Shown here: positions 12,430 through 51,288 of the stretch, piece by piece
How the letters are laid out: the number at the start of each line of letters is the position of its first letter
Position numbering within the stretch: the stretch's first letter is position 1
Assembly (NCBI GenBank): GCA_035549715.1
Contig: DASZQJ010000166.1
Coordinates: forward strand, 11,544 to 75,543
Source of the DNA: Burkholderiales bacterium
Lineage (GTDB): Bacteria > Pseudomonadota > Gammaproteobacteria > Burkholderiales > JACQAP01
DNA: 64,000 bases
Reading direction: 5' to 3'
The notes under the pieces: model-generated
Database searches by the model: none
What the model was told of the DNA's origin: nothing
What the model saw: the letters and a program-made list of their open reading frames with translations, nothing else
Position numbers and translations under genes: made by a program

Positions 12430-12446
12430 CCGCCCCGCCAGCGCCG

Positions 12447-24956: not shown

Positions 24957-27900
24957 TCAGCCGGCCCAGCGGCGCGCGTTGCGAAACATGCGCATCCAGG
25001 GGCTGTCCTCGCCCCATTGCCGCGGATGCCAGGAATTCTGCACGGTACGGAATGCCCGCTCGGGATGCGGCATCAGCACGGTGAACCGGCCGTCCGCCGT
25101 GGTCAGCCCGGTGATGCCTTCCGGCGATCCGTTCGGGTTCAGCGGATAGGTTTCGGTGCGCCCGCCCCGGTTGTCGACAAAGCGCACCGCCACCAGCTTG
25201 CGGGCACCGGCAAGCTGCGCCGGGGAGGAAAATTCGGCATAGCCCTCGCCGTGGGCCACGGCGATCGGCATGCGGCTGCCTTCCATGCCCGCGAAGAACA
25301 GCGACGGACTCTTTTGCACTTCCACCATCGCCACCCGCGCCTCGAACTGCTCGGAGCGGTTGCGCACGAAATGCGGCCAGTGCGCGGTGCCGGGGATGAT
25401 CTCGTGCAGGTTGCTCATCATCTGGCAGCCGTTGCACACGCCCAGCGCGAAGGAATCTCCGCGCTGGAAGAAGGCCTCGAATTCATCGCGAGCCCGGGCG
25501 TTGAAGAGGATGGACTTGGCCCAGCCCTCGCCTGCGCCCAGCACGTCGCCATAGGAGAAGCCGCCGCAAGCCACGAAGCCTCGAAATGCCTCCAACGTGA
25601 TGCGTCCGCAGATGACGTCGCTCATGTGCACGTCGATTGCATCGAAGCCTGCGCGATCGAAAGCGGCCGCCATCTCCACCTGGCCGTTGACGCCCTGCTC
25701 GCGCAGGATTGCGACTTTCGGACGCACCCCGCTGGCGATGAAAGGCGCCGCGACGTCCTCGGCCGGATCGAAGCCGAGTTTCGCGTGCAGACCGGGATCG
25801 GCGGCATCGAGGAGGCGGTCGTACTCCTGCTGCGCGCACGCCGGGTTGTCGCGCAGCTTCTGCATCTGGTAGGTGGTCTCCGACCAGGCACGCTGCAGCG
25901 CGATGCCCGAAGCCGCGTAAAGCGTCTTGCCGCCGGTCTTCACGATGAGCCGGCCGTCGCGGTTGACGCTCCCCAGGTCGTGGCATTCGGCGCCCAGCCC
26001 GGCGTCGGTGAACGCGCGGCGGACCTCGCGCAGGTCCGCCGCGCGCACCTGCAGGACCGCGCCCAGTTCCTCGTTGAAAAGCACGCCCAGGACGTCGCCG
26101 GGACTGCCGATGTCCACGGTTACGCCGACGTGGCCGGCGAACATCATCTCGGCCAGCGTCACGAACAGGCCGCCATCGGACCGGTCGTGGTAGGCCAGGA
26201 TCCTGCCGTCCTCATTGAGCCGTTGCACCGTCTCGAACAAGGCCTTGAGCTTCGCGGCCGAGTCGACGTCCGGGGCCTCGTTGCCGCTCTGTCCGTAGAC
26301 CTGCGCCAGCACCGAGCCGCCGAGGCGGTTGCGCCCCGATCCCAGGTCGATGAGGACCAGCCGGGTCGCCACGTCCGCCGCCAGTTGCGGCGTGAGCGTC
26401 TTGCGCACGTCCGGGCAGGGGGCGAAGGCCGAGACGATCAGGGACAGGGGGGCGACGACCTCCTTCTTGCGGCCTCCCTCCTCCCACCCGGTGCGCATCG
26501 ACATGGAGTCCTTGCCCACCGGGATGCTGATGCCCAGCGCCGGGCAAAGCTCCATTGCGACCGCCCGGACGGTGTCGAACAGGATCGCGTCCTCGCCCGG
26601 GTAGCCGGCGGGCGCCATCCAGTTCGCGGAAAGCTTGATGTCGCCGATCCTCCCGATGCGCGCGGCCGCCATGTTGGTTATCGCCTCCCCCACGGCCATG
26701 CGGCCCGAGGCCGGTCCGTTGATGACCGCTAGCGGCGTGCGCTCGCCCATGGAGAACGCCTCCCCACGGTCGCTGCGGAAGCCCATCAGCGTCACCGCCA
26801 CGTCCGCCACCGGCACCTGCCACGGCCCGACGAACGGATCGCGGGAGCACAGGCCGCCGACGGTGCGGTCGCCGATCGAAATCAGGAAGGTCTTGTTCGC
26901 CACGGCGGGAAACCGAAGCACCCGCATGGCGGCCTCCTCGAGGGTCGCACGCCCGAGGTCGAGCGCCGGGAGCCGGCGTGCCCGGTGCTTCACGTCCCGC
27001 GTCATCTTCGGGGGCTTGCCGAGCAGCACGCCCAGGTCCATGTCCACCGGCGCATTGCCGAACAGCGGGTCCTCGACCTTGAGCCAGGCCTCTTCCGTCG
27101 CCACGCCGACCACCGCGAAGGGGCAGCGCTCGCGCTCGCACAGCGCCTTGAACGCCTCGAAGCGGTCCGCCGCGACTGCCATGACGTAGCGCTCCTGGGA
27201 TTCATTGCACCAGATCTGCGCCGGGGTCATCCCGGATTCCTCGGACGGGATGGCGCGCAGGTCGATGCGGCCGCCGCGTTCCGCGCCGTGCACCAGTTCC
27301 GGCAGCGCGTTGGACAGCCCGCCCGCACCCACGTCATGGATGGAAAGGATCGGGTTGCGTCCGCCCAGCGCCCAGCAGCGATCGATGACCTCCTGCGCCC
27401 GGCGCTGGATCTCCGCGTTGCCGCGCTGGACGGAATCGAAATCGAGGTCGGCCAGGTTCGAGCCGGTGTTCATGCTCGACGCTGCGCCCCCGCCCATGCC
27501 GATCAGCATGCCGGGACCGCCCAGTTGGACCAGGAGCGAACCCGCCGGCACCGCCTGCTTGAACGACTGGCCGGCCGCGATGGCGCCCACGCCGCCCGCC
27601 AGCATGATGGGCTTGTGGTAGCCGCGCATCTCGCCGTCGACCTGCTGCTCGTAGGTGCGGAAGTAGCCGAACAGGTTGGGCCGGCCGAACTCGTTGTTGA
27701 ACGACGCGCCGCCAATCGGGCCTTCCAGCATGATCGACAGTGCCGAGGCGATCCGTTCGGGCTTGCCGATGCCGCCCCGTTCCCAGGGCTGCTCGAAACC
27801 AGGGATGCGCAGGTGGGAAACCGAGAAGCCGGTGAGGCCCGCCTTGGGCTTGGCGCCGCGGCCCGTCGCGCCTTCGTCGCGAATCTCCCCGCCGGAGCCC

Positions 27901-28844
27901 GTCGCCGCGCCCGGGAACGGCGAGATCGCCGTAGGGTGGTTGTGGGTCTCCACCTTCATCAGGGTGTGCGTCAGTTCCTCGCTGTAACGATAGCGCCCGT
28001 CGGCATCGGGATAGAAGCGGTCGACCGTCGCGCCCTCCATGATGGCCGCATTGTCGGAATACGCCACGACCGTGCCCTGCGGATGGGACGCATGGGTATG
28101 GCGCACCATGCCGAACAGGGACTTGTCCTGGCGCCGGCCATCGATGATCCAGTCGGCGTTGAAGATCTTGTGCCGGCAATGCTCGGAATTCGCCTGCGCG
28201 AACATCGTGAGCTCGACGTCGGTCGGATTGCGCCCCATGCGGCCGAAGTTTTCCACCAGGTAGTCGATCTCGTCCTCGGACAGGGCCAGCCCCAGGTCGC
28301 GGTTGGCCCGTTCCAGCGCCGCGCGCCCCCCGCCCAGCACGTCGATGCTGGACAACGGGCCCGGCTCGACGTGGTGGAACAACTGTCCCGCCGCCTCCAG
28401 CGAATCGAGCACGGCCTCCGTCATGCGATCGTGGATGAGGGGCAGCAGCGCCGCGCGGTCCCGGGACGCCAGCGCCTTCGTGCCCTTGCGCGGCACGACG
28501 TGGTACGCGACGCCGCGCTCGATGCGCTCGACGGCATCCAGCCCGCAGGAGTGCGCGATGTCGGTCGCCTTCGACGACCACGGGGAGATGGTCCCGATGC
28601 GGGGAACGACCAGGAGGAGCTCGCCGCCTTCCTCCACGGGCCGGGACGCCGGGCCGTAGACGAGCAGTTTCTCGAGGACGCCGCGTTCCTGCCCGGAGAG
28701 CGGCCGGCGCAGCGCGATGAAATGCCAGTAATCCGCGGATATGGCGGCGACGGCGGGCGTGGTCTCGTGGAGGGTTTGGGACAGCTTCCGGAGCCGGAAG
28801 TCGGACAGGGCGTTGCGGCCGCGCAGCGTCAGGAGGTCGGGCAT
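24957..28844 (-). CDS. purL: phosphoribosylformylglycinamidine synthase (single-chain)
   Basis: 1295-aa ORF with an N-terminal PurS-like part, AIR-synthase-like repeats and a C-terminal glutamine amidotransferase ([12 protein letters not shown]). Confidence 0.97.
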
Positions 28845-28941
28845 TTCGCCGGGTTTGCAGGTTTCGAAGCGAAATTATAACCGACCCCGCCGGACGCCTG
28901 GCAGGCCGGTTCCGGCTCGGGAAAGCTGGCACTTGTTGATT

Positions 28942-28965
28942 CGTTATATCCAGTTGTATATTTCG
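28942..28965. promoter_or_regulatory. ModE-type operator (Mo-box) A
   Basis: CGTTATAT-ccagttgt-ATATTTCG matches 15/16 positions of CGnTATAT-N8-ATATAnCG. It overlaps a promoter-like TTGTTG(28933)/TATATT(28957) pair upstream of the TonB-dependent receptor gene. Confidence 0.6.
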
Positions 28966-28971
28966 ATATGT

Positions 28972-28995
28972 CGTTATGCATATCACGATACAACG
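28972..28995. promoter_or_regulatory. ModE-type operator (Mo-box) B, degenerate
   Basis: CGTTATGC-atatcacg-ATACAACG matches 13/16 positions. It lies 26 nt upstream of ATG 29021. Its right arm is identical to that of the box in front of modB. Confidence 0.4.
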
Positions 28996-29020
28996 AAGTT
29001 TCCAAGGGGGACCATTACAA

Positions 29021-31042
29021 ATGATTACCAGAACCCTGGCCTGTCTGGCCCTGGCAGCCGCAACCGGAACCGGCACGGCTGCCGCCGATTCCAACGTGTT
29101 CACCCTCGGCGACATCGAGGTCACGGCCAAGCGCATCAAGGAGGAAGGCACCGGCGTCCAGACCGTCACGCAGGAGAACATCGAGGACCACAATCGGGAA
29201 ACGGTCAGCCGCGCCCTCACCATGGAGTCCGGGGTAACCATCGCCAACGTCGGCCCGCGCAACGAATCCACCGTCTACGTGCGTGGCTACGACCTGAGGC
29301 AGGTCCCCGTCTACGTCGACGGCATCCCGATCTACGTCCCCTACGATGGTTATGTGGACCTCGGTCGATTCAATACCTTCGACCTGTCTCAGATCGAGAT
29401 CTCCAAGGGCTTTACCTCCGTACTGAACGGGCCCAACGCTTTCGGCGGCGCAATCAACCTCCTCTCCCGCCGGCCCTCGAAAGCCTTCGAAGGCGACGTC
29501 GGCGCGGGCGTCTTCATGAACGATGACTTCGGAGACAACGGCTACCGGGCGTATGCCAACCTGGGCACCAACCAGGGTGGCTGGTATGCCCAGATCGGTG
29601 CCTCCTACCTCGACAAGCGCCAGTATTCGCTCTCCGACGAGTTCGAAGGTGCGTCCTTCATTCCCGGCGGCGCGGGTCGCGCCGCCCAACCGCCGGGCGA
29701 ACGCCTCAACAGCTATAACTCGGACCAAAAGGTCAATGTCAAGCTCGGCCTCACGCCGAATGCCACGGACGAATACGCGCTCAACCTGATCGCCCAGCGG
29801 GGAGAGAAGGGCGTTCCCTCCTATGCCGGCAACTTCAATGCCTCGGGGCCGACAGGGCCGCGCTATTGGCAGTGGCCCTATTGGGACAAGACCAGCGCCT
29901 ATTTCCTGTCCCAGACGGCGATCGGTGACGTGTCCTACGTCAAGACCCGGGTCTACTACGACCAGTTTGAAAACTCCCTCAACCAGTACACCGACGCCAC
30001 TTATGCCACGTTGCGTACCGGCGGCAGCAGGCCCAGTTTCTACGACGACTACACGTACGGGGCGAGCATCGAAGCAGGGACCCGGTTCATCCCCACGAAC
30101 GAGTTCAAGGTCGCGGCGCATTACAAGGACGACGTGCATCGTGAGCACTTGGAGAACGGTCCGACCCAGAATTTCGAGGACCAGATCTACTCGATCGGCA
30201 TCGAGGACAGCCAGCGCTTCGGCGAGCGCCTCACAATCGTGGCCGGGGCGAGCTACGACGCCTCGGAAACCAGGGAGGCCCAGAACCTCGTTGGCGGCAA
30301 TCTGGTGCCCTTTGAGATGGGCAGCTCCGATGCCTTCAATCCCCAGATCGGGGCGTTCTACAAAACCGGTGATACAGGCATCGCACGCGTCACGGTCAGC
30401 CGGAAATCGCGCTTCCCCACCATCAAGGATCGCTACTCCTACCGCCTGGGAACGGCGTTGCCGAATCCGGACCTGGAACCCGAACGCGTCACCCATTACG
30501 AAGTGGGCTACGCCGATTCCGGGCGCGAGCACGCGAGCTACAACGTGTCGGCATTCCATGACGAGATCCGTGACCTGATCCAGCTCGTGGACAATGCGAT
30601 TTCCCCGGGAGTCGGCCAGAACCGCAACATCGGCAAGGCCCGATATCGCGGTTTCGAGCTGGGCGGGGCAGTCTATCCAACGAGCAACGTCGAGCTTGGC
30701 GGCAGCTACACCTACCTCGACCGCGACAACATTTCGACGCCGAACATCCGGCTCACTGATGTGCCCATGCACAAGGTGTTCGCCTATGCGCAGTGGCGTT
30801 TCCTCGAGAAGTTCCGCTTCATCGGGTCCGGGGAGTACAACTCCGACCGCTACAGCTCGACCAACGGCCAGCGCATCGCCAGCGAGTTTGGCGTGTTCAA
30901 TGCCAAGCTCGCCTGGGATGTCGAGGCGGCGTTCACGGTCGAGTTCGGCGTGAACAACCTGCTCGACCGCAACTACGAGTACATCGAGGGCTTTCCCGAG
31001 GAAGGCCGCAATTACTTCGCCAACATGCTTTACAAGTTCTAG
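29021..31042 (+). CDS. TonB-dependent outer-membrane receptor
   Basis: ORF 28976..31042. I prefer ATG 29021 (MITRTLACLALAAATGTGTAAA signal peptide, GGGGGA RBS). Plug-domain sequences are present (VTAKR...TVSRAL...VYVRGYDLRQVPVYVDGIPIY), along with a long beta-barrel and a C-terminal ...NMLYKF. Confidence 0.9.
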   Translation: MITRTLACLALAAATGTGTAAADSNVFTLGDIEVTAKRIKEEGTGVQTVTQENIEDHNRETVSRALTMESGVTIANVGPRNESTVYVRGYDLRQVPVYVDGIPIYVPYDGYVDLGRFNTFDLSQIEISKGFTSVLNGPNAFGGAINLLSRRPSKAFEGDVGAGVFMNDDFGDNGYRAYANLGTNQGGWYAQIGASYLDKRQYSLSDEFEGASFIPGGAGRAAQPPGERLNSYNSDQKVNVKLGLTPNATDEYALNLIAQRGEKGVPSYAGNFNASGPTGPRYWQWPYWDKTSAYFLSQTAIGDVSYVKTRVYYDQFENSLNQYTDATYATLRTGGSRPSFYDDYTYGASIEAGTRFIPTNEFKVAAHYKDDVHREHLENGPTQNFEDQIYSIGIEDSQRFGERLTIVAGASYDASETREAQNLVGGNLVPFEMGSSDAFNPQIGAFYKTGDTGIARVTVSRKSRFPTIKDRYSYRLGTALPNPDLEPERVTHYEVGYADSGREHASYNVSAFHDEIRDLIQLVDNAISPGVGQNRNIGKARYRGFELGGAVYPTSNVELGGSYTYLDRDNISTPNIRLTDVPMHKVFAYAQWRFLEKFRFIGSGEYNSDRYSSTNGQRIASEFGVFNAKLAWDVEAAFTVEFGVNNLLDRNYEYIEGFPEEGRNYFANMLYKF

Positions 31043-31051
31043 GAGTCTCCC

Positions 31052-32362
31052 ATGCGCGTTGCCGGACACCTGAAGGCGCTGCTCGCCCTGCTGCTGGCCG
31101 GCGCCGCATCGGCCGGGATGGCGGAGGGCAGGGTCGTCGTCCTCACGAGCTACCCGCAGGAAACCATCTCCCTGTTCGAGGCAGCCTTCGAAAAGGCCAA
31201 TCCCGGCACGCGCCTGGAGATCGTCTGGCGCATGCCTCGGGATGCCATGCCCTATCTGCTCGACGCGGGCAGCCACGGCGTGGATGTCTACTGGTCCGCC
31301 TCGGCCAGGAACTACGCGGAGCTCGCCGCGAAGGACCTGCTCGCCCCGCTTGCCGCCGATCCCGCATTGCCCGAGCGCATCGGCCGCTTCCCGATCTCCG
31401 ATCCGGGGCTGCGCTACCGCGCCTCCGAAATCGCCAGCTACGGCTTCGCCTGCAACGAGTCGAAGCTGCGCGCCGACCGCCTCACCTGCCCGGCGACCTG
31501 GGCCGACCTGGCCAAGCCGGGCTACGCGGGTCGCATCCTGCTCCCGGTGCCTTCCAAGGTGGGCTTTGCCCCGCTGATGTACGAAATCCTGCTGCAGAAG
31601 CTGGGCTGGGAAGCCGGATGGAAGGTCATCGCCGAGGCGGCCGCCAATTCGGTGCTGTTCGTCCCGGGCGGGGCCTTCATCACCGACCGCATCGGCGCCG
31701 GCGAGGAGGATGTGGGCGTGACCATCGACTTTTTCGCCAAGTCGGCCATTGCCAACGGCGCGCCCATGACGTTCGTCTATCCCGACGTAATCGGGTTCTC
31801 GCCGGCGCACGTCGCCATCCTCGCGAGCGCGCCCCATCCCGACGAGGCCCACAGGTACGTCGAGTTCCTGCTGTCCGAGGAAGGCCAGCGCATCCTGGCC
31901 CATCCCGACATCCGCAAGCTGCCGGTCCGGCCGTCCGCTTATGCCGCCGTCGACGCCGGCGGGCTCAATCCCTTCGATCCCGCCCGCAGCGCCGCCTTCG
32001 ACTACGACATGGCCGCGGCCCAGAAGCGCCAGGCGCTGGTCAATGCGCTGTTCGACGCGATGGTGAGCGACAGGCACGCCGGGCTGCGTGAGCTGTCGCA
32101 GGCGATCCAGCAGGCCGAGGCACTGGCACAGCAGCGCGGCGACGCGAACCTGGCGTCCGCCGCGGGCAGGGCGCGATCCGCCATGAGCTGGGTGCCGGTA
32201 TCCGCCATGGAATCCATCGCTCCTGACCTGCAAAAGAACGCGGGCGAACGGGCCGTCGCCTGGGGCCGCGAGATCGATGCCCGACGCGAGGGCGCGCTCG
32301 CGGAACTGCGCCCATTGCTTTCCCGCACCGATCCGCCGGCGCTCGCTCAAGCTCGGCGATGA
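31052..32362 (+). CDS. orphan periplasmic solute-binding protein (Fe3+/thiamine-type PBP fold) with helical C-terminal extension
   Basis: 436-aa ORF with a signal peptide. The N-terminal 320 aa or so resemble AfuA/FbpA-type binding proteins (VVVLTSYPQETISLFEAAFEKANPGTRLEIV...VDVYWSAS). The last 110 aa or so are Ala/Arg-rich and helical. The gene starts 9 nt after the receptor stop with an AGGAG RBS. No permease or ATPase genes are nearby. Confidence 0.75.
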   Translation: MRVAGHLKALLALLLAGAASAGMAEGRVVVLTSYPQETISLFEAAFEKANPGTRLEIVWRMPRDAMPYLLDAGSHGVDVYWSASARNYAELAAKDLLAPLAADPALPERIGRFPISDPGLRYRASEIASYGFACNESKLRADRLTCPATWADLAKPGYAGRILLPVPSKVGFAPLMYEILLQKLGWEAGWKVIAEAAANSVLFVPGGAFITDRIGAGEEDVGVTIDFFAKSAIANGAPMTFVYPDVIGFSPAHVAILASAPHPDEAHRYVEFLLSEEGQRILAHPDIRKLPVRPSAYAAVDAGGLNPFDPARSAAFDYDMAAAQKRQALVNALFDAMVSDRHAGLRELSQAIQQAEALAQQRGDANLASAAGRARSAMSWVPVSAMESIAPDLQKNAGERAVAWGREIDARREGALAELRPLLSRTDPPALAQARR

Positions 32363-33723
32363 CATCCCGGGCGCGTGTCGCCCTCGCGGCCCTGTGCGCC
32401 GGCTGGGCCCTGGGGGCGATGGCAGAAGCACCTTCGGCCGCCGGCGGCAGTTCAACCATCCCCGATGCAACCCGCGAAGCTTTCGCCCAACCTTCGCCGG
32501 CCCTGCCGCGGCAACTGCGCGAATCCTTTTTCCTGGGCCGCAGCCTGTTCCGCCAGGTTTGGGTGGTCGCCCCCGCGATGGATCGCGACGTCTCCGGCCT
32601 CGGTCCGATCTTCAACCGGCCTTCCTGCGCGGCGTGCCACCTCAAGAACGGTCGCGGCCGGGCGCCTGACCATCCGGCAGAAAAAATGTCGACCATGCTC
32701 GTGCGCCTGAGCATACCCGGCATCGATGCACACGGCGGTCCGCTCCCCCATCCTGCCTACGGCGACCAGCTCAACGATTCCGCCAATCCCGGCATTGCCG
32801 CGGAAGGCCAGGCCCGGATCACATGGCAGGAACACTTGGAGACCTTGCCCGACGGCGAGCGGGTGTCCTTGCGCCGCCCGCTAGTGCGCTTCAGTGAGCT
32901 CGCCTATGGTCCGCTAGGCGAGGATGTCCTCGTGTCCCCCCGCATCGCGCCACCCGTCTTCGGGCTGGGACTGCTCGAAGCGGTACCGGAGTCGACCCTG
33001 CAAGAACTCGCTGCGCACAGTCAGGCGCTGGGCCTGGGGGGACGCCTCAATCGGGTCTGGGATCCTTCGCGCCGGGCGATGGTCGTCGGGCGATTCGGCT
33101 GGAAGGCGAACAGCGCCAGCCTGTTGACGCAAACTGCTGCGGCATTCCTGGGCGACCTAGGCATTACCTCGTCCCTGTTCCCGGACGAAAACTGCACGAT
33201 GGTGCAAGCCGCCTGCTCGGCGGCACCGTCCGCCGGAGCGCCCGAACTTTCGGATGCCCGGCTTGCCGTGACCATTCTGTACCAGCAATCGATCGCGGTG
33301 CCTGCGCGTCGCGACAGCGGTAACCCAAAGGTGGCGCGCGGAGAAAGGGCGTTCGCATCCGCCGGCTGCGTTGGCTGCCACGTGCCCGAACTGCTTACCG
33401 GCGGGCATCCCCTGCCGTTCCTGTCCGGCCAGCACATCCATCCCTACACCGACCTGCTGCTGCACGACATGGGCGAAGGCCTGGCCGACCATCGACCCGA
33501 TTTCCTCGCGAGCGGACGCGATTGGCGCACGCCGCCGCTGTGGGGCATCGGCCTGGGCGAGCACATCAACGGGCATCGCGCCTTCCTGCACGACGGCCGC
33601 GCCCGCACGTACGCGGAAGCCATCCTCTGGCATGACGGCGATGCCGGGCCTTCGCGCGAGGCCTTTCGTGCGATGGGCAAGGCCGACCGGGACGCGCTGC
33701 TGGAGTTCCTCGATTCGCTCTGA
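32359..33723 (+). CDS. di-haem cytochrome c-type oxidoreductase (DUF1111 family)
   Basis: 454-aa ORF with a signal peptide and two CxxCH haem motifs (CAACH, CVGCH), consistent in size and layout with DUF1111. Its ATG overlaps the stop of the binding-protein gene (ATGA). Confidence 0.75.
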   Translation: MTSRARVALAALCAGWALGAMAEAPSAAGGSSTIPDATREAFAQPSPALPRQLRESFFLGRSLFRQVWVVAPAMDRDVSGLGPIFNRPSCAACHLKNGRGRAPDHPAEKMSTMLVRLSIPGIDAHGGPLPHPAYGDQLNDSANPGIAAEGQARITWQEHLETLPDGERVSLRRPLVRFSELAYGPLGEDVLVSPRIAPPVFGLGLLEAVPESTLQELAAHSQALGLGGRLNRVWDPSRRAMVVGRFGWKANSASLLTQTAAAFLGDLGITSSLFPDENCTMVQAACSAAPSAGAPELSDARLAVTILYQQSIAVPARRDSGNPKVARGERAFASAGCVGCHVPELLTGGHPLPFLSGQHIHPYTDLLLHDMGEGLADHRPDFLASGRDWRTPPLWGIGLGEHINGHRAFLHDGRARTYAEAILWHDGDAGPSREAFRAMGKADRDALLEFLDSL

Positions 33724-36077: not shown

Positions 36078-39000
36078 TCAGTGCCGCGACGCGTCCGCAG
36101 CCAGAATGGCCGCGTCGCCGGCGAACTTGGGTTGGGGAACGCCGTGGCGGCGCAGGAGGCTGAACACCACGGGGACGAACAGCAGGGTCGCCACGGTCGC
36201 CAGGATCAGGCCGCCGATCACCGCGCGACCCAGCGGGGCGTTCTGCTCGCCGCCCTCGCCCAGGCCGCTGGCCATCGGCGCCATCCCGATGATCATCGCC
36301 GCGGCGGTCATCAGGACCGGACGCAGGCGCGTGGCGCCCGCTTCGAGCGCGGCTTCGATCGGGTCCCTGCCCTCGCGCAGCATCTCGTTGGCGAACGACA
36401 CCATCAGGATGCTGTTCGCCGTGGCCACGCCCACGCTCATGATCGCGCCCATCAGCGAGGGCACGCTGAAGCTCGTCCCGGTGAGGAAGAGCATCCAGAT
36501 GATGCCGCAGAAGGCGCCCGGCCGCGCCGTGATGATGATGAACGGGTCGGTCCAGGACTGGAAGTTGATCACCATGATGAAGTAGACGAGCAGCACCGCG
36601 GCGATCAGGCCGATGCCCATGCGGGTGAACGCGTCGTACATGCTCTCCGCCTGGCCGGAAATCTCGATCCGGGTGTTGTTCTTCTGTTCCTTCGCCCTGG
36701 GGATGAACTCGTCGACCACCTTGCGCACGTCCGCGGCGACCGCCCCGAGGTCCCTGCCCTGGACGTTCGCGTACACGTCGAACGCCAGCTCGGTGTTGAC
36801 GTGGTTGACGATGGCGGGCAGCTCCACGTGCTTGACCGTGGCGACGTTGCCCAGGGTCTGCGTCGGCGACTGGCCCTTGCCGGGCAGCGGGATGTTCAGG
36901 ATCGATTCCACGGAGTTGAGCGCGGTCTCGTGCGGCTGCACGACGACCACCTGGTACGGGCGACCCGTCTTCGGGTCGTTCCAGTAGTTGGGGGTGACCA
37001 CCACGCTCGAGGAGGAGGCGATGAGGAAGTTCTCGGCGATCTCGCGCTGCGTGAATCCGAACTGGGCGGCGCGCGTGCGATCGACTTCGACGCGCAACGC
37101 CGGGTGGTTCATCACCTGGTGCACGTGCACGTCCACGGCGCCCGGGATGCGCTTCATGCGCGCCTCGATCTCCTTGGCGAGGTGGAAGTTCCTGTAATCG
37201 CCGCCGATGATCTTGACGTCGATCGGCGCCGGCAACCCGAAGTTCAGGATCTGGTTCATCATGTCCCCGGGCTGGAAGTAGAAGCCGCATTCGGGAAATT
37301 TCTCGGGCAGGACCTGGCGCAGCTGGCGGATGTATTCCCGGGTCGCGACCTTGTGGTCCGGCTTCAAGGCCACCAGGATCTCCCCGTCGCCGGACGACAG
37401 CGTCACGTTGTCGCTGTATGCAAGGTTCGTGGAGGGGGGAATGCCGATGTTGTCGATGACCACGTCCAGGTCCTCCGCGGCGATGGTCCGGCGGATCTCG
37501 TCCTGCACGCGGGAGAAGATGCGCCCCGTGTCCTCGATGCGCGTACCCACCGGCGCGTTGACATGCAGCCGGATCTGGCCGGCATCGACCACGGGGAAGA
37601 ATTCCCAGCCGATGAAGAGCACGGCGCCCGCCGAGCCCAGGACCATGATGCCGAACAGCGCGAACACGACGACCCGGTGGGTCAGCGACCAGCGCAGCGC
37701 GCCGAGGTAGTTGCCGCGCAGGCGCTCGAAGTTGCGCTCCACGGCCGCATGGATGCGGGCGCCGACGCCCCGGCGCGCGCCCTCTTCCTCATGCTCGAGG
37801 AGCAGGTAGCGGGACATCACCGGCACCAGGGTGCGCGAGATCCCGTAGGACGCGAGGATCGAGAACACGACGGCCAGCGCCATCGGCGTGAAAAGGTACT
37901 TTGCCGCGCCCGTCAGGAGCAGCACGGGCAGGAACACGACGCAGATGCAAAGCATCGACACCAGCGCGGGCACGACGATCTGCTGCGAGCCGTCGAGGAT
38001 CGCGCGCGTCAGGCCCTTGCCCATCGACATGTGCCGGTGGATGTTCTCGATCGTCACCGTCGCGTCGTCGACCAGGATGCCGACGGCCAGCGCCAGGCCC
38101 CCGAGGGTCATGAGGTTCAGCGAGTAGCCCATGGCCGACAGCATGATGATCGAGAACAGGATGGCGAGCGGGATGGAGGTCACCACCACCAGCGTCGAGC
38201 GCCAGCTGCCCAGGAACAGCAGGATGAGCAGGCCGGTGAGCGCCGCCGCCATCAGGCCTTCGACCACCACGGCGTGCATGGCGTTGGCCACGAACACCGA
38301 CTGGTCGAACAGGAACGAGAGCTTCAGGCCCTCCGGGAGGGCAACGTTGGACAGCCGCTCGCGCACCGCGCGGATGATGTCCAGCGTCGAGGCGCCGCCG
38401 CTCTTGAGCACCGTGATCAGCGCCGATTTGCGGCCGTCATGGCGCACCAGGCTGGTCTGCTCGTTGTAGCCATCGCGCACGTCGGCCACGTCGTTGACGT
38501 AGACCATCGTGCCGTTGACGTTCTTGACGGGGAGCAGCCCCAGCTCGGCGATTTTCTCCGGGCTGTTGTTGATGCTCAGGATGTAGTCGCGCTCGCCGAT
38601 CTGCGTGAGGCCGGTCGGCAGGTTGACGTTCTGCCGGTTGAGCGCGTCGTTGATGTCCTTGACCGTGATCCCCTTGGCGTGCATGCGCACCGGGTCGGCG
38701 TCGATCATCACCAGGCGCGGGCGGCCGCCGTAGGGCAGCGGCACCGTCGCCCCGGGAACCGGCACCACTTCGTTTCGCACCAGCCACAGCCCCTGGTCGT
38801 AGAGCTGCTGCTCGCTCAGCGTGTCGCTGCCCAGCGCGATCTGCAGGATCGGCACGCTGGAAGCGTCGTACTGGACGATCTGCGGCGGCTGCTGCCCCGG
38901 CGGCATGCGCCGGATGATGGTCTGCGAGGTCGCGGTGATCTGGCTGACCGCCTGGTCGATCCGGACGTTGGGCTGGAAATAGATCCGGATGACGTTCTTG

Positions 39001-39263
39001 CTGTTGATCGTGTGGGATTCGATGCGGCGGATGTTGCTGACGGTCGTGCTGATCTGCTGCTCCGAGAAGATCGTGATCTGCTTCTCGAACGCGTCGGCGG
39101 GGATGCCCTGGTACTGCCAGATGAGCGTGACTATCGGCTCGGCGATCTCGGGGAAGATGTCCTTGGGCATGCGCAGGATCGACACGATGCCAAGCAGCAC
39201 CACGAGTAGCGCCACGACCACGAAGGTATAGGGCCGGCTCAGCGCCAGCCTGACGATCCACAA
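36078..39263 (-). CDS. RND efflux transporter permease (AcrB/HAE-type)
   Basis: 1061-aa ORF starting MWIVRLALSRPYTFVV. It has 12-TM RND topology with two large periplasmic loops and GILVDDATVTIENI in TM4. Confidence 0.9.
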   Translation of the reverse strand: MWIVRLALSRPYTFVVVALLVVLLGIVSILRMPKDIFPEIAEPIVTLIWQYQGIPADAFEKQITIFSEQQISTTVSNIRRIESHTINSKNVIRIYFQPNVRIDQAVSQITATSQTIIRRMPPGQQPPQIVQYDASSVPILQIALGSDTLSEQQLYDQGLWLVRNEVVPVPGATVPLPYGGRPRLVMIDADPVRMHAKGITVKDINDALNRQNVNLPTGLTQIGERDYILSINNSPEKIAELGLLPVKNVNGTMVYVNDVADVRDGYNEQTSLVRHDGRKSALITVLKSGGASTLDIIRAVRERLSNVALPEGLKLSFLFDQSVFVANAMHAVVVEGLMAAALTGLLILLFLGSWRSTLVVVTSIPLAILFSIIMLSAMGYSLNLMTLGGLALAVGILVDDATVTIENIHRHMSMGKGLTRAILDGSQQIVVPALVSMLCICVVFLPVLLLTGAAKYLFTPMALAVVFSILASYGISRTLVPVMSRYLLLEHEEEGARRGVGARIHAAVERNFERLRGNYLGALRWSLTHRVVVFALFGIMVLGSAGAVLFIGWEFFPVVDAGQIRLHVNAPVGTRIEDTGRIFSRVQDEIRRTIAAEDLDVVIDNIGIPPSTNLAYSDNVTLSSGDGEILVALKPDHKVATREYIRQLRQVLPEKFPECGFYFQPGDMMNQILNFGLPAPIDVKIIGGDYRNFHLAKEIEARMKRIPGAVDVHVHQVMNHPALRVEVDRTRAAQFGFTQREIAENFLIASSSSVVVTPNYWNDPKTGRPYQVVVVQPHETALNSVESILNIPLPGKGQSPTQTLGNVATVKHVELPAIVNHVNTELAFDVYANVQGRDLGAVAADVRKVVDEFIPRAKEQKNNTRIEISGQAESMYDAFTRMGIGLIAAVLLVYFIMVINFQSWTDPFIIITARPGAFCGIIWMLFLTGTSFSVPSLMGAIMSVGVATANSILMVSFANEMLREGRDPIEAALEAGATRLRPVLMTAAAMIIGMAPMASGLGEGGEQNAPLGRAVIGGLILATVATLLFVPVVFSLLRRHGVPQPKFAGDAAILAADASRH

Positions 39264-39351
39264 GGCCTCTTCCCCCTTATTTGTTGCAATTACATGACTT
39301 TAATGCTACAAGGTCGGCAAAACAGAATACAACAAAAAACCATTAATAATC

Positions 39352-39393
39352 ATATATTTCACGCTGACATTGATATTTCAGAGTGAAATATAT
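39352..39393. promoter_or_regulatory. perfect 11-bp inverted repeat ATATATTTCAC-N20-GTGAAATATAT in an AT-rich divergent control region
   Basis: Arms lie at 39352-39362 and 39383-39393. A third ATATTTCA copy sits in the spacer (39373-39380). The right arm overlaps a TATATT -10-like hexamer (39389-94), 42 nt upstream of the MFP start. Confidence 0.5.
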
Positions 39394-39434
39394 TGCGTTG
39401 CGAAACACCGGGATCCGAGCTCGAGGAGACTGAG

Positions 39435-40688
39435 ATGATTGGACGTCGAAACCGCCTTTATGCACAGCGCAGCAACCCCGTGCGCATGGCGGGCCGGGTA
39501 TCGGGAACGGGACTGATCGCCGGGCTCGTGCTGGTGCTCGCAGGCCTGTTCGCCATCGGCCTCTGGCCGAAATGGCACGCGCTGAAGACGGCGCAGGCGG
39601 AGGCCGGCAAGGATGACCTGCCGGCCGTGCTCTACGTCCCGGCCAAGCGCGGCAGCGCCAAAGCCGACATGACCCTGCCGGCCACGCTGTACGCGATGCA
39701 GGAAACCACGATCTACGCGCGCACCAACGGCTACCTCAAACGCTGGCTCGTCGACATCGGCGACAGCGTGAAGGCAGGCCAGGTGCTCGCCGAGATCGAG
39801 GCCCCGGAGCTCGACCGTGAACTGGACCAGGCACATGCGAGCCGCGCCCAGGTCAAGGCAAACCTCGACCTGGCGCGCGTGACGGCCGAGCGCTACGCAG
39901 CCCTGCTCAAGGAGGAAGCCGTCTCGCCCCAGGAAGTCGACGAGAAGCAGGGTTTGTACGCCGCCCGCAACGCGGACTACGCCGCCGCCGAAGCGAACCT
40001 GCGCCGCCTGGAGCAGATGAAGTCCTTCCAGCGCGTCGTGGCCCCGTTCTCCGGCACCATCACGGCGCGCAACGTCGAAGTGGGCTCGCTCATCCAGGCG
40101 GGCAGCGCTTCCGCCTCCGGGTGGCTGTTCAAGCTGGCGCAGACGGATACCATCCGCGTCCACGCCGCCGTGCCCCAGAGCAGCATGCGCCTGGTCAAGC
40201 CGGGCATGACGGTGGACCTCGTGGTGCCCGAGCTCGGCGACCAGGCCTTTGCCGCCAAGGTCATGCGCAATGCAGGCGCCTTCGACGCGGCCACGCGCAC
40301 GATGATCGTGGAAATGCACGTCCCCAACCGGGGCGGGCCGCTGCTGCCGGGCATGTATGCGCAAGCCCGGTTGAAGCTCGTCAACCCCGAGCCCAGCATC
40401 CAGATTCCGATCAACGCCCTGATGGTCGGCGGCGAAGGCGCGCGCGTTGCCACCGTGGATCCGAATGGCGTGGTGCAGATCAAGCCCGTGAAGGTCGGGC
40501 GCGACCTGGGCAAGGAGGTCGAGATCGTCGCGGGCCTGGATGAGAACGAGCGCGTCATCAACAACCCCCGCGACAGCCTCGCCAACGGCACGAAGGTGCG
40601 GGCGACGGAAATGCAGGCGCACAACGACAAGAAAGACGCGCCGAAGCCCGCCGGCACGCCGGCGGCGACGGACAAACCCAAGTCCTGA
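39435..40688 (+). CDS. efflux RND periplasmic adaptor (membrane fusion protein)
   Basis: ATG 39435 is preceded by GAGGAG. The product has a TM anchor, a biotinyl/lipoyl-like motif (IYARTNGYLKRWLVDIGDSVKAGQVLAEIEAPE), a coiled coil and a beta-barrel. Confidence 0.9.
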   Translation: MIGRRNRLYAQRSNPVRMAGRVSGTGLIAGLVLVLAGLFAIGLWPKWHALKTAQAEAGKDDLPAVLYVPAKRGSAKADMTLPATLYAMQETTIYARTNGYLKRWLVDIGDSVKAGQVLAEIEAPELDRELDQAHASRAQVKANLDLARVTAERYAALLKEEAVSPQEVDEKQGLYAARNADYAAAEANLRRLEQMKSFQRVVAPFSGTITARNVEVGSLIQAGSASASGWLFKLAQTDTIRVHAAVPQSSMRLVKPGMTVDLVVPELGDQAFAAKVMRNAGAFDAATRTMIVEMHVPNRGGPLLPGMYAQARLKLVNPEPSIQIPINALMVGGEGARVATVDPNGVVQIKPVKVGRDLGKEVEIVAGLDENERVINNPRDSLANGTKVRATEMQAHNDKKDAPKPAGTPAATDKPKS

Positions 40689-40692
40689 TCCC

Positions 40693-42165: not shown

Positions 42166-42921
42166 TCACGGCTTGAGGAAGCCGTACTTCTGCAGGATCT
42201 GCGACCCCGCCGTCGCACGCACGAATGCCACGAAGGCCGCGGCGGCCGCCGCCTGGCTGCTGTCCTGGATGACCGCGATCGGGTACAGCACGGGGCTGGC
42301 CGTGGGGACCTCGAGGGCCACCTTCACCTTTTCCGGCATCAGGGCGGCGTCCGTGCGATAGACAAACGCGGCGTCGACTTCACCGCGCGCAACGTAGTCC
42401 AGGCTCTGCCGGACGTTCTGCGTGTTGATGACCTTGTCCTTCACGGGCTCCCACAAACCCTGCTCCATGAGCACCGATCTGCTGTAGCGCCCGACCGGCA
42501 CGCTGTCCGGATTGCCGATGGCCACCCTGCGGAACCTGTCCCCGGTGAGCTCGGCCAGGCTCCCGATCCCGGGACTCTCGCCGCCCGGGATGACGAGCAC
42601 GAGTACATTGCGAGCGAAATCGGCCCGGGAACCGGGTCGCAGCAGGCCCTGCTGCTGCGCGCGGTCCATCGTTTCCTGGTCGGCGGCAGCGAACACGTCC
42701 ACCGGTGCGCCCCTGGCGATCTGCTGCAGGAGCTGCCCCGAGCCGCCAAAGTTGAATGCCACTTTCGTGCCGGGATGGGCGCGCTCGAATTCACGTCCGA
42801 TGTCGGTGAATGCGTTGGTCAGGCTGGCCGCGGCGGAAACCACCAGATCCGCCGCCGCGGCGCCGGCCCACGCCTGCATGGCCACGACCAGGAAGACCCA
42901 CCTTGTCACTGCATTGCGCAT
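42166..42921 (-). CDS. modA: molybdate ABC transporter substrate-binding protein
   Basis: 251-aa ORF with a signal peptide and the ModA pattern (LVVSAAASLTNAF, FNFGGSGQLLQQI, VPVGRY). Confidence 0.9.
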   Translation of the reverse strand: MRNAVTRWVFLVVAMQAWAGAAAADLVVSAAASLTNAFTDIGREFERAHPGTKVAFNFGGSGQLLQQIARGAPVDVFAAADQETMDRAQQQGLLRPGSRADFARNVLVLVIPGGESPGIGSLAELTGDRFRRVAIGNPDSVPVGRYSRSVLMEQGLWEPVKDKVINTQNVRQSLDYVARGEVDAAFVYRTDAALMPEKVKVALEVPTASPVLYPIAVIQDSSQAAAAAAFVAFVRATAGSQILQKYGFLKP

Positions 42922-44689: not shown

Positions 44690-44713
44690 CGTGATGTTCT
44701 TGTAGATACAACG
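44690..44713. promoter_or_regulatory. degenerate ModE-type box C (modC-porin intergenic)
   Basis: CGTGATGT-tcttgtag-ATACAACG matches 13/16 positions. Its right arm is identical to those of boxes B and D. Confidence 0.3.
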
Positions 44714-44728: not shown

Positions 44729-45538
44729 TCACTTCACCAGCTGCATGGGCGCCCGCGCGCGCGCCGCGCCAATCTCCCGGTGGGCGTCCGTGAGCAGGCC
44801 GCGGATCGCCTCCTGGCGCGCCCGCCCCTGCTCGTCGCGATACGGCAGCCCCTTCAGGTCCGTGACGCGCTCCACCCTGCCGTGCTCCAGGATCACCAAT
44901 GTCTGGGCGAGCGCCGAGACGTCCTCGGGATCATGGGTGATCACCAGCATGGGTACCTTGAAGGCTTCGCGCGTGCGCAGCAGCTCGTCGCGCATCCGGT
45001 CCCTGAGCAGGGGATCGAGCGCGGCGAAAGGCTCGTCGAGCAGCAGCACTGCCGGCCGGCGGATCAGCGCGCGCGCCAGCGCCACCCGCTGCTTCTGCCC
45101 CCCCGAGAGCTGCCAGGGCCGCGCCCCGCCCAACCCGCGCAGCTCGAACACTTCCATGAGCTCGTCGACGCGCCGCAGGAGTTCGGCGGAATGCCTTCGC
45201 TGCCACCAGTGGCGCACTCCGAAGCCGATGTTCTGCGCCACGGTGAGGTGGGGGAACAGCGCATAGTCCTGGAACAGGTAGGCGACCCCGCGCTCGCGCG
45301 CCGGGACGTCGACGCCGGTCGAGGAGTCGAACAGCACCCGCCCCGCCACGGCGATGCGACCGCGCTCGGGCGTCTCCAGTCCGGCAATGGCCTTCAGGGT
45401 GACGCTCTTGCCGGCGCCGGAGGGGCCGAAGATCACGCCGCGTTCGTCGTCGCACGTGAACCTCACGTCGAGCGGGAACTCGCGCCCGCTCGAGCGCAGC
45501 GTCTTGTGGATGTCGACCTCGATGTGCACCGGGTTCAT
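44729..45538 (-). CDS. modC: molybdate ABC transporter ATP-binding protein (short form, no TOBE domain)
   Basis: The last 269 aa of ORF 44729..46279 start at ATG 45538. Walker A (GPSGAGKS), the signature (LSGGQKQR) and Walker B (LLLDEP) are present. The ATG overlaps the modB stop. The C-terminal 45 aa or so are too short for a TOBE/Mop domain. Confidence 0.85.
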   Translation of the reverse strand: MNPVHIEVDIHKTLRSSGREFPLDVRFTCDDERGVIFGPSGAGKSVTLKAIAGLETPERGRIAVAGRVLFDSSTGVDVPARERGVAYLFQDYALFPHLTVAQNIGFGVRHWWQRRHSAELLRRVDELMEVFELRGLGGARPWQLSGGQKQRVALARALIRRPAVLLLDEPFAALDPLLRDRMRDELLRTREAFKVPMLVITHDPEDVSALAQTLVILEHGRVERVTDLKGLPYRDEQGRARQEAIRGLLTDAHREIGAARARAPMQLVK

Positions 45539-46209
45539 CCTTGTGCGGCCGGCCGCAACAGCCGTCCCGAAGCGAGCAGCACTGCGATGCAGACGGCGGA
45601 GGTCACGATGACCAGGAAATTGGCGACATCGTCCCGCCCCGCCTGGACGGCCTCGTAGACGGCGATGGACAGCGTCTGTGTCTTTCCCGGCAGGCTTCCC
45701 GCCACCATGAGGGTCGCGCCGAATTCGCCCATTGCGCGCGCGAAGGCGAGCATCATGCCCGCCAGGATGCCGCGCCAGGCAAGCGGCAGCGTCACCTGGA
45801 GGAACACGGCGGTTTCCGATTTGCCCAGGATGCGGGCGGCCTGCTCGTACTGCCGCTCCACGCCTTCGAACGCCGCGCGCGCCGCTTTGTAGACGAGGGG
45901 AAAAGCCACGACGGCCGCGGCGATGGCCGCGCCCTGCCAGGTAAACACGAGCGAGATGCCGAAGGTCGACTCCAGCCAGGCGCCGATCGGGCCCCGCCGG
46001 CCGACCAGGACCAGAAGGTAGTAGCCCAGCACGGTGGGGGGCATCACCATTGGCAGGGTCATCATGGCGTCCAGGACTTCCCGGCCGGGAAAACGCAGGC
46101 GCGCCAGGGCGAAGGCCACCAGCACGCCCGCCACGGTGGCGCCGAAGGTGGCCCAGCCCGCGACTTTCAGGGTGAGCAGGAGGGGAACGAGGACTTCCTG
46201 GGACGACAC
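45535..46209 (-). CDS. modB: molybdate ABC transporter permease
   Basis: ORF 45535..46263. I prefer GTG 46209 because the ORF-track ATG 46263 would place the ModE box at 46223-46246 inside the gene. The EAA-type loop is ARILGKSETAVFLQVTLPLA. Confidence 0.85.
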   Translation of the reverse strand: MSSQEVLVPLLLTLKVAGWATFGATVAGVLVAFALARLRFPGREVLDAMMTLPMVMPPTVLGYYLLVLVGRRGPIGAWLESTFGISLVFTWQGAAIAAAVVAFPLVYKAARAAFEGVERQYEQAARILGKSETAVFLQVTLPLAWRGILAGMMLAFARAMGEFGATLMVAGSLPGKTQTLSIAVYEAVQAGRDDVANFLVIVTSAVCIAVLLASGRLLRPAAQG

Positions 46210-46222: not shown

Positions 46223-46246
46223 CGATGTATACGAATTGATACAACG
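46223..46246. promoter_or_regulatory. ModE-type operator (Mo-box) D in front of modB
   Basis: CGATGTAT-acgaattg-ATACAACG matches 14/16 positions, and both mismatches are the symmetric TAYAT variant. It lies just downstream of a minus-strand TTGACG-N17-TAGCCT promoter-like pair and 14 nt upstream of GTG 46209. Confidence 0.6.
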
Positions 46247-48260: not shown

Positions 48261-48284
48261 CGTTATATTTCTATGGATATAACG
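48261..48284. promoter_or_regulatory. ModE-type operator (Mo-box) E, perfect
   Basis: CGTTATAT-ttctatgg-ATATAACG matches 16/16 positions and is a perfect palindrome. It lies upstream of the beta-propeller gene. Confidence 0.75.
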
Positions 48285-48443: not shown

Positions 48444-48477
48444 GCCGTCGCTATATTCTCTTGGATATAGCGACGGC
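48444..48477. promoter_or_regulatory. ModE-type operator (Mo-box) F, perfect with extended 13-bp arms
   Basis: GCCGTCGCTATAT-tctcttgg-ATATAGCGACGGC. The core CGCTATAT-N8-ATATAGCG matches 16/16 positions. It lies 85 nt downstream of the modE stop and is overlapped by a minus-strand TTGACG (48482..48477). Confidence 0.75.
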
Positions 48478-48561: not shown

Positions 48562-48936
48562 CTAGCGGGGCTCGACCATCAGGTCAGCGAAATCCTCGAG
48601 TTCGCGCGCCACGCTGGCGGTGGCCTTGGCTTCCATGCGCTGGTAACGCGCCAGGATTTCCTTGCCGAACTCGGTCACCCGAGCCCCGCCCCCGCGGCTG
48701 CCGCCGGTGGCGGTCTCGACCAGGGGCGTGCGGAAACACTGGTTCATGGTGTCGACGAGCAGCCAGGCCCGCCGGTACGACATGTCCATCTGGCGGGCCG
48801 CGGCGGAGATGGAGCCGGTCGATTCGATGGCTTTGAGGAGGTCGGCCTTGCCCGGCCCCATGGCGATGGCCTTGCGAAACATGATCCGGATCTGCGGCCG
48901 CGGGCGTGACGAGGATTTTGGCTTCGCCGCCGCCAT
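48562..48936 (-). CDS. modE: ModE-family regulator, DNA-binding domain only (no Mop/TOBE domains)
   Basis: ATG 48936 lies 2 nt after the moaE stop and gives 124 aa. GKADLLKAIESTGSISAAARQMDMSYRRAWLLVDTMNQCFRTPLVETATGGSRGGGARVTEFGKEIL aligns closely with my recollection of the E. coli ModE N-domain (SLLKHIALSGSISQGAKDAGISYKSAWDAINEMNQ...ATGGKGGGGAVLTRYG). Confidence 0.8.
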   Translation of the reverse strand: MAAAKPKSSSRPRPQIRIMFRKAIAMGPGKADLLKAIESTGSISAAARQMDMSYRRAWLLVDTMNQCFRTPLVETATGGSRGGGARVTEFGKEILARYQRMEAKATASVARELEDFADLMVEPR

Positions 48937-51143: not shown

Positions 51144-51288
51144 CCCGCCTGGCCTTGTATAACCCCTTGCCGAGAATGCCTTTTCCGGCTCCCCCGCGCT
51201 ATTCTCATTGAAATATAATGGGCTTGCGCCAGCGGCGGCGCGAGACCCATCAAAACAACGAGCCGCAAGCTCGAAAACCAAGGACACG

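Follow-up and report, generated by a model that had tools for sequence, protein, structure and literature searches.

To our knowledge, 'porins' have been assumed to let molybdate and tungstate pass the outer membrane at the nanomolar concentrations found in fresh water and in soil, and no receptor for metallophore-bound molybdenum (Mo) is known. Likewise, we know of no characterised Mo or tungsten (W) example among the metal-specific TonB-dependent receptors (TBDRs). The methanobactin system for copper combines the receptor MbnT, the binding protein MbnE and the pair MbnP/MbnH, in which MbnH modifies MbnP; it may be compared with CorA-CorB and with MopE and its di-haem partner. In Azotobacter vinelandii, VnfA1 activates three TBDR operons solely in the combined absence of Mo and vanadium (V); the last gene of one of these operons is NifD-like (PMC9542535). 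The Azotobacter TBDRs at Avin_30860, Avin_39890, Avin_47130 and Achr_39320-39290, which are accompanied by ABC components, are either induced by Mo/V starvation or located beside modG/modE/modABC (PMC9542535, PMC4465626), and of the published observations they come closest to suggesting TonB-dependent Mo acquisition. Here we analyse a stretch of 64,000 nucleotides from a Burkholderiales bacterium (contig DASZQJ010000166.1; hereafter the window), in which a three-gene cassette encoding a TBDR, a periplasmic binding protein (PBP) and a di-haem DUF1111/DHOR protein follows tandem palindromes of the ModE type.

We put at roughly 60% the reading that the three genes form one operon under two tandem ModE-type operators overlapping the promoter region, repressed by Mo/W and induced by starvation, and that the cassette serves the TonB-energised acquisition of Mo/W species. 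That the operon is a member of the ModE regulon is, judged from its sequence, highly probable, whereas the individual steps of the mechanism proposed below are less certain than the acquisition itself. The cassette consists of the following genes.

29021..31042, + strand: TBDR, 673 aa; Plug PF07715 (5.5e-21) and barrel PF00593 (4.5e-35)
31052..32362, + strand: PBP, 436 aa; SBP_bac_6/1/11 (Pfam); class-II core with a helical tail
32359..33723, + strand: di-haem DUF1111/DHOR protein, 454 aa; PF06537 (6.2e-89); CAACH and CVGCH motifs

A preliminary description of this DNA had read three coupled genes for a TBDR, a PBP and a DUF1111 protein with two CxxCH motifs, and had proposed profile searches for their family placement. 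The Pfam domains agree with it throughout (Plug and barrel in the receptor, SBP_bac in the PBP, PF06537 in the DHOR), as do the 9-nt gap between the TBDR and PBP genes (GAGTCTCCC) and the ATGA overlap between the PBP and DHOR genes.

The region upstream of the cassette contains an AT-rich island (28933-29000) inside the 176 nt that separate the divergent purL from the first cassette gene, in a window of 66.7% G+C. The letters at 28940-28999 are ttCGTTATATccagttgtATATTTCGatatgtCGTTATGCatatcacgATACAACG. A search with the operator pattern CGnTATAT-N8-ATATAnCG, i.e. CGNTATAT-N8-ATATANCG, allowing up to 3 mismatches, gave the sites listed here with the neighbouring elements.

24957-28844, - strand: purL, divergent neighbour of the cassette
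28933..28962, + strand: promoter-like pair TTGTTG, 18-nt spacer, TATATT; read from the letters, tentative
28942..28965, no strand: ModE-type operator 1, CGTTATATccagttgtATATTTCG; 1 mismatch; 22.2 bits; kept in both closest relatives (L001 and L004)
28964..28987, no strand: third, overlapping register; 2 mismatches; kept in neither L001 nor L004
28972..28995, no strand: ModE-type operator 2, CGTTATGCatatcacgATACAACG; 3 mismatches; 18.1 bits
29004..29011, + strand: ribosome-binding site AAGGGGGA, 9 nt 5' of the ATG; read from the letters

Operators 1 and 2, previously scored as 15/16 and 13/16 matches, equal 1 and 3 mismatches at 28942 and 28972 (N positions counted as matches) and are separated by 30 nt from centre to centre; operator 1 overlaps the putative -10 element. 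An intergenic alignment of the window with its two closest relatives showed that both boxes are kept, 29-30 nt apart, whereas their flanks have diverged; at the position aligned with operator 2, both relatives carry a box with 1 mismatch. The third register exists as described, but it is probably incidental, because it is not conserved in these relatives. The promoter-like pair is likewise present, but it falls below the threshold of a sigma-70 scan, with a -35 element of 3/6, and no promoter reached the threshold in that scan.

Throughout the window, the pattern matches eight times at up to 3 mismatches (starts 28942, 28964, 28972, 44690, 46223, 48261, 48449 and 51197), compared to 0.14 matches expected, and eight were reached in 0 of 100 dinucleotide shuffles, which agrees with the earlier view that the palindrome is no isolated AT-rich accident. 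A weight matrix derived from the sites at orthologous cassettes finds positions of at least 10 bits at these eight boxes only. No Fur box is apparent in the window, as had been noted: the best match has 8 mismatches in 19 positions. No Rfam match to a molybdenum cofactor (Moco) riboswitch was obtained at gathering thresholds in the window. A terminator scan found none between the DHOR gene and the following nnr gene, which lies downstream of the cassette in the closest relatives only. Service of the boxes to the divergent purL was considered and rejected: purL is a neighbour only in L001 and L004, and the boxes track the cassette.

The cassette and its boxes are conserved together far beyond this window. 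In a comparative set of 80 loci, one genome per species, with neighbours identified by tblastn, the DHOR gene lies directly downstream of the PBP gene in each of the 78 loci whose contig extends far enough, and the receptor gene directly upstream in 76 of the 80. The four remaining loci have no receptor on the same strand (L003), a Plug-only open reading frame (L036), a divergent receptor (L049) or a contig end (L079), and in L003 and L049 perfect boxes directly precede the PBP-DHOR pair. Box statistics cover the region -300 to +10 of the receptor start and were computed for those 68 loci whose upstream sequence reaches 300 nt or more. A box with up to 3 mismatches is present in 50 of them (shuffles: mean 7.9, maximum 13) and one with at most 1 mismatch in 17 (0.58 in shuffles); upstream there are 3.3 sites per kb, compared to 0.077 per kb over the other 1.06 Mb of the same loci. 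Thus the box travels with the cassette through many genera, a point that the preliminary description had proposed to check. With the weight matrix, 12 bits or more are reached by one site, and often by two or three, in 54 of the 68 loci, and half of these sites are centred between -75 and -26 from the start codon, a repressor-like position. By contrast with these boxes, Fur boxes are not enriched: at 69 cassette promoters their mismatch distribution equals that of shuffles.

The carriers include methylotrophs, methanotrophs and iron oxidisers. Stand-alone cassettes of Pandoraea have perfect or near-perfect boxes, and that of Pseudomonas qingdaonensis has two (22.9 and 24.4 bits). Gallionella, Sideroxydans and Sideroxyarcus share the variant CGTTATGTAC...TACATAACC. 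The cassette is also found in Methylobacillus, Methylovorus, Methylophilaceae, Zoogloea, Oxalicibacterium, Leptothrix, Methylobacter and Methylicorpusculum. Boxed cassettes come from Methylobacillus, Zoogloea, Gallionellaceae and methanotrophs as well as from Pandoraea and Pseudomonas. The window PBP is identical to that of a Burkholderiales metagenome-assembled genome and belongs to a family of ~430-aa proteins, for which a full profile search at E <=1e-30 gave 503 clusters (clustered at 50% identity); many of its members are named 'PgtC' by JGI.

In several lineages, the cassette adjoins Mo genes. In Sideroxydans (L009), it diverges from modE-modA-modB-modC, with one boxed intergenic region common to both, and in Zoogloea (L040) the same four genes directly follow the DHOR gene. 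These calls were made with NCBIfam models, where modA, modB and the Sideroxydans modC score above cut-offs and modE below the full-length cut-off. Full-length ModE genes adjoin the cassette in L009, L025, L040 and L048. The operon can also be extended: in Rhodoferax the boxes are followed by tonB-exbB-exbD and then the receptor, and in Azonexus/Dechloromonas the boxes lie further upstream, the operon opens with a 132-aa gene and a DUF2478 gene stands between receptor and PBP. In the window itself, the other boxes and the Mo genes are arranged as follows.

42166-42921, - strand: modA; TIGR01256, 196 bits against a cut-off of 62.5; directly follows the porin-like gene
42964-44676, - strand: porin-like secreted protein, 570 aa; signal peptide and ...FRFRF end
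44690..44713, no strand: ModE-type box; 3 mismatches; 17.9 bits; upstream of the operon of the porin-like gene and modA
44729..46209, - strand: modB and modC; TIGR02141, 235 bits, above cut-off; modC-like, 195 bits, below the equivalog cut-off
46223..46246, no strand: ModE-type box; 2 mismatches; 14 nt upstream of the likely modB GTG start (46209)
47038-48213, - strand: gene of a 391-aa secreted protein, behind two perfect ModE boxes
48261..48284, no strand: perfect ModE-type box; 28.9 bits; upstream of the 391-aa protein gene
48449..48472, no strand: second perfect ModE-type box; 27.0 bits; in the same intergenic region between modE and the 391-aa protein gene
48562..48936, - strand: short ModE, 124 aa; DNA-binding domain without Mop/TOBE; TIGR00637, 2.5e-26, model positions 14-93 only
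51197..51220, no strand: weak ModE-type box; 3 mismatches; 14.5 bits; at the start of moaA (MoaA domains)

The genes moaE, mobB and moeA lie close by, and the window ModC (44729-45538, - strand) has no TOBE domain. Perfect palindromes had been reported beside modE and in front of modB; two perfect copies do stand at 48261 and 48449, between modE and the 391-aa protein gene, whereas the modB copy has 2 mismatches. As boxes mark modE, modB, the porin-like gene with modA, and moaA, this organism uses the motif as the operator of its Mo regulon.

The receptor starts with a signal peptide (MITRTLACLALAAATGTGTAAA...) followed by LGDIEVTA, in which GDIEVTA resembles a TonB box, and ends in YKF with a terminal Phe, all read from the sequence. 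All NCBIfam models fall below cut-off for this protein, and a comparison with the PDB revealed weak similarity to BtuB and CirA (E ~1e-15).

The AlphaFold2 model of the PBP (pLDDT 91, pTM 0.86) has a two-lobe class-II core and a C-terminal tail of ~115 aa, modelled with confidence as a four-helix bundle (residues 320-424), in line with the helical tail of about 110 aa noted before; the modelled bundle has no counterpart in solved relatives. A Foldseek search gave 8x1a, 6wce and 4r72 as top matches (probability 1.0, target-normalised TM 0.65-0.79). The nearest structures are the glucose-6-phosphate-binding VcA0625, the pyridoxal phosphate (PLP)-binding P5PA and the sugar-phosphate-binding AfuA, followed by ferric-binding proteins and the metal-citrate-binding MctA, at ~20% identity. 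These proteins take anionic ligands, namely sugar phosphates, PLP, Fe3+ with a synergistic anion, and metal-citrate, and the modelled pocket is therefore probably of a type suited to anions. As described previously, the PBP has no permease or ATPase partner: no such gene is adjacent to it in the window, nor where the cassette stands alone in Pandoraea, Pseudomonas and Azotobacter.

In the DHOR, the haem motifs C90/C93/H94 and C337/C340/H341, together with many other residues, are invariant in 30 homologues. A sequence search of the PDB found no solved homologue, and the model (pLDDT 79) gave remote Foldseek matches to di-haem cytochrome c peroxidases (TM 0.2-0.39, probability 0.94-1.0) and to the gamma subunit of hydrazine synthase. 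Judged by the ATGA overlap, translation of the DHOR gene is coupled to that of the PBP gene. One protein of the PBP family (P0253, 844 aa) is a PBP-DHOR fusion, to which we give little weight as a possible frameshift artefact of the overlap; another (P0322, 795 aa) fuses the PBP to a TorS-type periplasmic sensor domain. The overlap and the single PBP-DHOR fusion suggest that PBP and DHOR may work jointly.

We propose that plentiful molybdate or tungstate would keep the operon repressed through ModE, and that Mo/W starvation would switch it on. The TBDR would then spend energy of the inner membrane to move a Mo (or W) species over the outer membrane. The cargo would most likely be a complexed or poorly diffusing form, and a complex is favoured because the same regulon has a porin-like gene beside modA for free molybdate. 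Once in the periplasm, the cargo would be caught by the tail-bearing PBP, and the DHOR might perform a redox step either on the cargo, leading to release of molybdate, or on the PBP itself. In the former case it could oxidise or strip the cargo, as has been suggested for EfeB and DUF1111 in iron uptake; in the latter it could modify its PBP partner, in the manner of MbnH acting on MbnP. The molybdate would finally enter the cytoplasm through ModA-ModBC.

The preliminary description had likewise proposed a Mo/W-starvation-induced outer-membrane uptake route; wherever it could be checked in silico, the outcome favoured it (box conservation, mod linkage, TonB-ExbBD, no Fur signal), whereas what it said of the substrate and of the di-haem protein keeps the standing of a proposal.

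Several observations weigh against this uptake route. We infer both the binding of Mo/W and the Mo-dependent expression from sequence. The PBP does not match the modA equivalog and is recognised only by phnS2-like models, below their cut-offs; iron or organophosphates are the ligands of its relatives. In imelysin/EfeO operons, DUF1111 proteins have been tied to iron uptake (bioRxiv 10.1101/072470). The window ModE consists of the DNA-binding domain only, so that molybdate would have to be sensed by a partner protein or another ModE encoded outside the window. The weight matrix was trained on sites picked with the same pattern, and as the sigma-70 scan gave no promoter, the repressor geometry rests on the distance to the start codon. 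Moreover, some 10-14 of the 68 orthologous cassettes have no recognisable box, and several of these belong to long siderophore-like operons with FecCD-type ABC importers and TonB-ExbBD. In L024/L083, L027, L055, L059 and L080, all box-less, the cassette follows the gene of a second receptor, TBDR2; the L083 operon runs Peripla_BP_2, globin-like, FecCD, ABC ATPase, TonB, ExbB, ExbD, TBDR2 and cassette, with the operon promoter outside the DNA examined. L008, L035 and L054 have no box, and L077 has an 11-bit site only. The box-less loci contain no Fur box, and L008, L035, L054, L077 and L083 gave no Moco riboswitch at Rfam gathering thresholds. Finally, the A. vinelandii cassette, which lies beside the atp operon and whose receptor is Avin_52120 (PMC9542535 supplement), shows the core TATAT-N8-ATATA alone, which lacks the CG flanks and lies 13 nt upstream of the start codon as called.

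The iron-linked features among these raise the question of ordinary iron or siderophore uptake, with the palindromes arising by chance in AT-rich DNA. The Fe3+-type annotation of the PBP, the iron link of DUF1111 elsewhere (bioRxiv 10.1101/072470) and the orthologues in operons with FecCD and TonB point that way, but eight window sites against 0.14 expected, boxes in 50 of 68 orthologous promoters against 7.9 in shuffles, the lack of Fur enrichment and the physical linkage to modEABC leave plain iron uptake essentially excluded. Control by Fur was rejected, as Fur boxes are neither enriched at the 69 promoters nor found in the box-less loci. It is unlikely, too, that a Mo-regulated cassette imports a substitute, such as tungstate, vanadate or iron for Mo-independent isoenzymes, comparable to the action of ModE on the alternative nitrogenase regulators of Azotobacter and Rhodobacter. 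ModE regulons do include Mo-independent alternatives (textbook knowledge; PMC9542535), the A. vinelandii TBDRs are induced only without both Mo and V (PMC9542535), relatives of the PBP and DHOR are iron-linked, and methylotrophic carriers may, by general knowledge, have W- or Mo-containing formate dehydrogenases. Nevertheless, the cassette repeatedly adjoins modEABC, lacks a Fur box and, in the neighbourhoods inspected, has no Mo-independent isoenzyme gene beside it; a tungsten version would still belong to the Mo/W reading, W and Mo being inseparable here.

Regulation of the opposite sign is conceivable as well, since some E. coli promoters are ModE-activated (textbook knowledge): ModE might activate the operon at high Mo, or the PBP might be a PgtC-like sensor and the DHOR a peroxidase, serving signalling or protection from oxidative stress instead of uptake. 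The JGI name 'PgtC' of many family members, the relative fused to a TorS-type sensor domain and the remote fold similarity of the DHOR model to cytochrome c peroxidases would fit, but boxes at -75 to -26, often in tandem, have a repressor-like geometry, no conserved kinase or response regulator accompanies the cassette, and a Plug-and-barrel receptor, with dedicated TonB-ExbBD in some operons, speaks for transport; we hold this possibility to be quite improbable. Salvage of molybdopterin, Moco, cPMP or another organophosphate under Mo scarcity, comparable to cobalamin uptake by BtuB, is very improbable. Cofactor import is common among TBDRs (textbook knowledge), the structural relatives of the PBP bind glucose-6-phosphate, PLP and sugar phosphates, and in Rhodoferax (L050 7001-7918) the receptor and PBP genes are separated by an inserted gene, whose product joins a cytochrome c to an Oxidored_molyb-like domain of the molybdopterin-binding type. 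This insertion is, however, a single case; the identity of the PBP to organophosphate binders is only ~20%, the conserved core has no inner-membrane transporter for such a molecule, and Moco is very labile off protein (textbook knowledge).

The 570-aa porin-like protein, which matched no family and no PDB entry, is a candidate Mo-regulated porin by its position and ends. ModE-boxed porin genes of other families were observed in L020 (Alginate_exp, 11244-12917) and L015 (Porin_4, 10947-12071). Porin passage, cited previously as the normal assumption for molybdate, probably coexists with the cassette in view of this ModE-boxed gene beside modA: a Mo-regulated porin and ModABC would probably form a route for free molybdate. 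The idea that the orphan PBP replaces an absent ModA was rejected, as modA is present at 42166-42921 and canonical modA accompanies the cassette in Sideroxydans and Zoogloea.

The 391-aa secreted protein, probably a beta-propeller, had no family assignment, and a PDB sequence search was of no use for it; its boxes make it a candidate uncharacterised member of the Mo regulon. A homologue of 70% identity is encoded in L025 (12566-13639), where boxes that are perfect or nearly so lie within a few kb of it, at 10953, 11018 and 14869. Between the 391-aa protein gene and modB lies a 222-aa gene (46373-47041, - strand) with a weak helix-turn-helix similarity to sigma-70 region 4 and terminase small subunits. 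DUF6152 and DUF6644 genes (50290-51143, + strand) occupy the stretch from mobB to moaA within the cofactor-synthesis cluster, just 5' of the weak box at 51197. The region 36078-42135, from the cassette to the mod cluster, contains an AcrB-type RND gene (- strand) and genes for a membrane-fusion protein and an outer-membrane factor (+ strand); no ModE box was found at these efflux genes.

Among the orthologous loci, a second module often stands beside the cassette, comprising TBDR2, Peripla_BP_2, FecCD, ABC ATPase, globin-like, luciferase-like monooxygenase and TonB-ExbBD genes. Further recurrent neighbours are a stand-alone NifD/K-like Oxidored_nitro gene, DUF2478, the 132-aa protein, which belongs to no family, and DUF2325.

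L082 2893-7958; L083 163-8000; L061 10662-17092; L066 620-5264; L059 2-5727: second module loci
L082 13977-15389; L083 17237-18643; L082 12661-13585; L061 4610-5044 and 7340-7879; L003 2928-3995; L025 11054-12385: recurrent neighbour genes

In L066 and L073 the second module and the cassette flank one boxed intergenic region. The 132-aa and DUF2325 genes are directly beside boxes in several loci, whereas the link of the NifD/K-like and DUF2478 genes to boxes is weaker. By its gene content, the second module looks like a Mo-regulated chelate importer, and it may be the counterpart of the Azotobacter operons, to which we liken it by their description (PMC4465626, PMC9542535).

If the proposed acquisition holds, a function would be assigned to the tail-bearing PBP family (~500 clusters, E <=1e-30) and to a subgroup of DUF1111, which would thereby gain its first defined chemical role. 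It would also be relevant wherever in the environment nitrate reduction, formate oxidation, nitrite oxidation or nitrogen fixation is limited by Mo. As the cassette occurs in genetically tractable hosts, including A. vinelandii (Avin_52120 and its neighbours), the Pseudomonas putida group, Pandoraea and Methylobacillus, the question is directly testable. We tentatively suggest that the cassette could be the first dedicated energised outer-membrane importer for Mo/W, composed of a ModE-repressed TBDR, a new class of tail-bearing PBP and a DUF1111 redox step that feed ModABC, in more than 80 species.

As for priority, our search found no published description of a ModE-controlled TBDR or of the cassette, but it did not cover RegPrecise and subscription-only literature, so an earlier mention in a regulon table is possible. 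The earlier statement that such a system had not been described therefore stands for the cassette, for which no paper was found, but not for the idea of TonB-dependent Mo uptake, which is not entirely new, being hinted at in Azotobacter (PMC9542535, PMC4465626). The genes Avin_52120-52140 are not named in either of these papers; for Avin_52120, the supplements of PMC9542535 give spectral counts from co-immunoprecipitation only, which are uninformative on expression. Compared by description, the Azotobacter Mo/V receptors differ from the cassette in having ABC partners and activation by VnfA1, and their operons resemble the second module, with TBDR2, FecCD and a NifD-like Oxidored_nitro gene.

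The classical ModE/modABC systems of E. coli, Rhodobacter capsulatus and A. vinelandii share with the cassette the same palindrome, located near the start codon and often in tandem; the motif is also present at modB, modA and moaA of the window, and in other genomes the cassette adjoins modEABC. They differ in that the classical mod regulon includes neither a TBDR, nor a non-ModA PBP, nor a di-haem protein, and in that the window ModE lacks Mop domains. The methanobactin system is comparable in composition: it, too, unites a TBDR with a periplasmic binding protein, and its peroxidase-like di-haem enzyme acts with a metal-binding partner. Nevertheless, MbnE is of the oligopeptide type, MbnH is a MauG-like cytochrome c peroxidase outside PF06537 and the regulator differs, and the cassette has neither an MbnP homologue nor chalkophore genes. 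The imelysin/EfeO-DUF1111-DUF1513 and EfeUOB systems likewise pair a PF06537 di-haem protein with a periplasmic metal-handling partner, and a redox step before capture has been proposed for them (bioRxiv 10.1101/072470). The cassette has a TBDR and a PBP instead, carries no signal of iron regulation, and neither imelysin/EfeO nor DUF1513 partners were found in the window or the annotated loci.

The proposed logic of regulation is that of ZnuD under Zur, OprC or NosA for copper, FrpB4 under NikR, CntO for pseudopaline and LutH for lanthanides, where a TBDR is expressed upon starvation under the regulator of the metal itself. Compared to these metal-specific receptors, that of the cassette is only weakly similar to solved TBDRs and is always accompanied by a PBP and a di-haem enzyme. 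Altogether, if our reading holds, the cassette would represent TBDR uptake controlled by a metal sensor, with a new gene composition and for a new metal.

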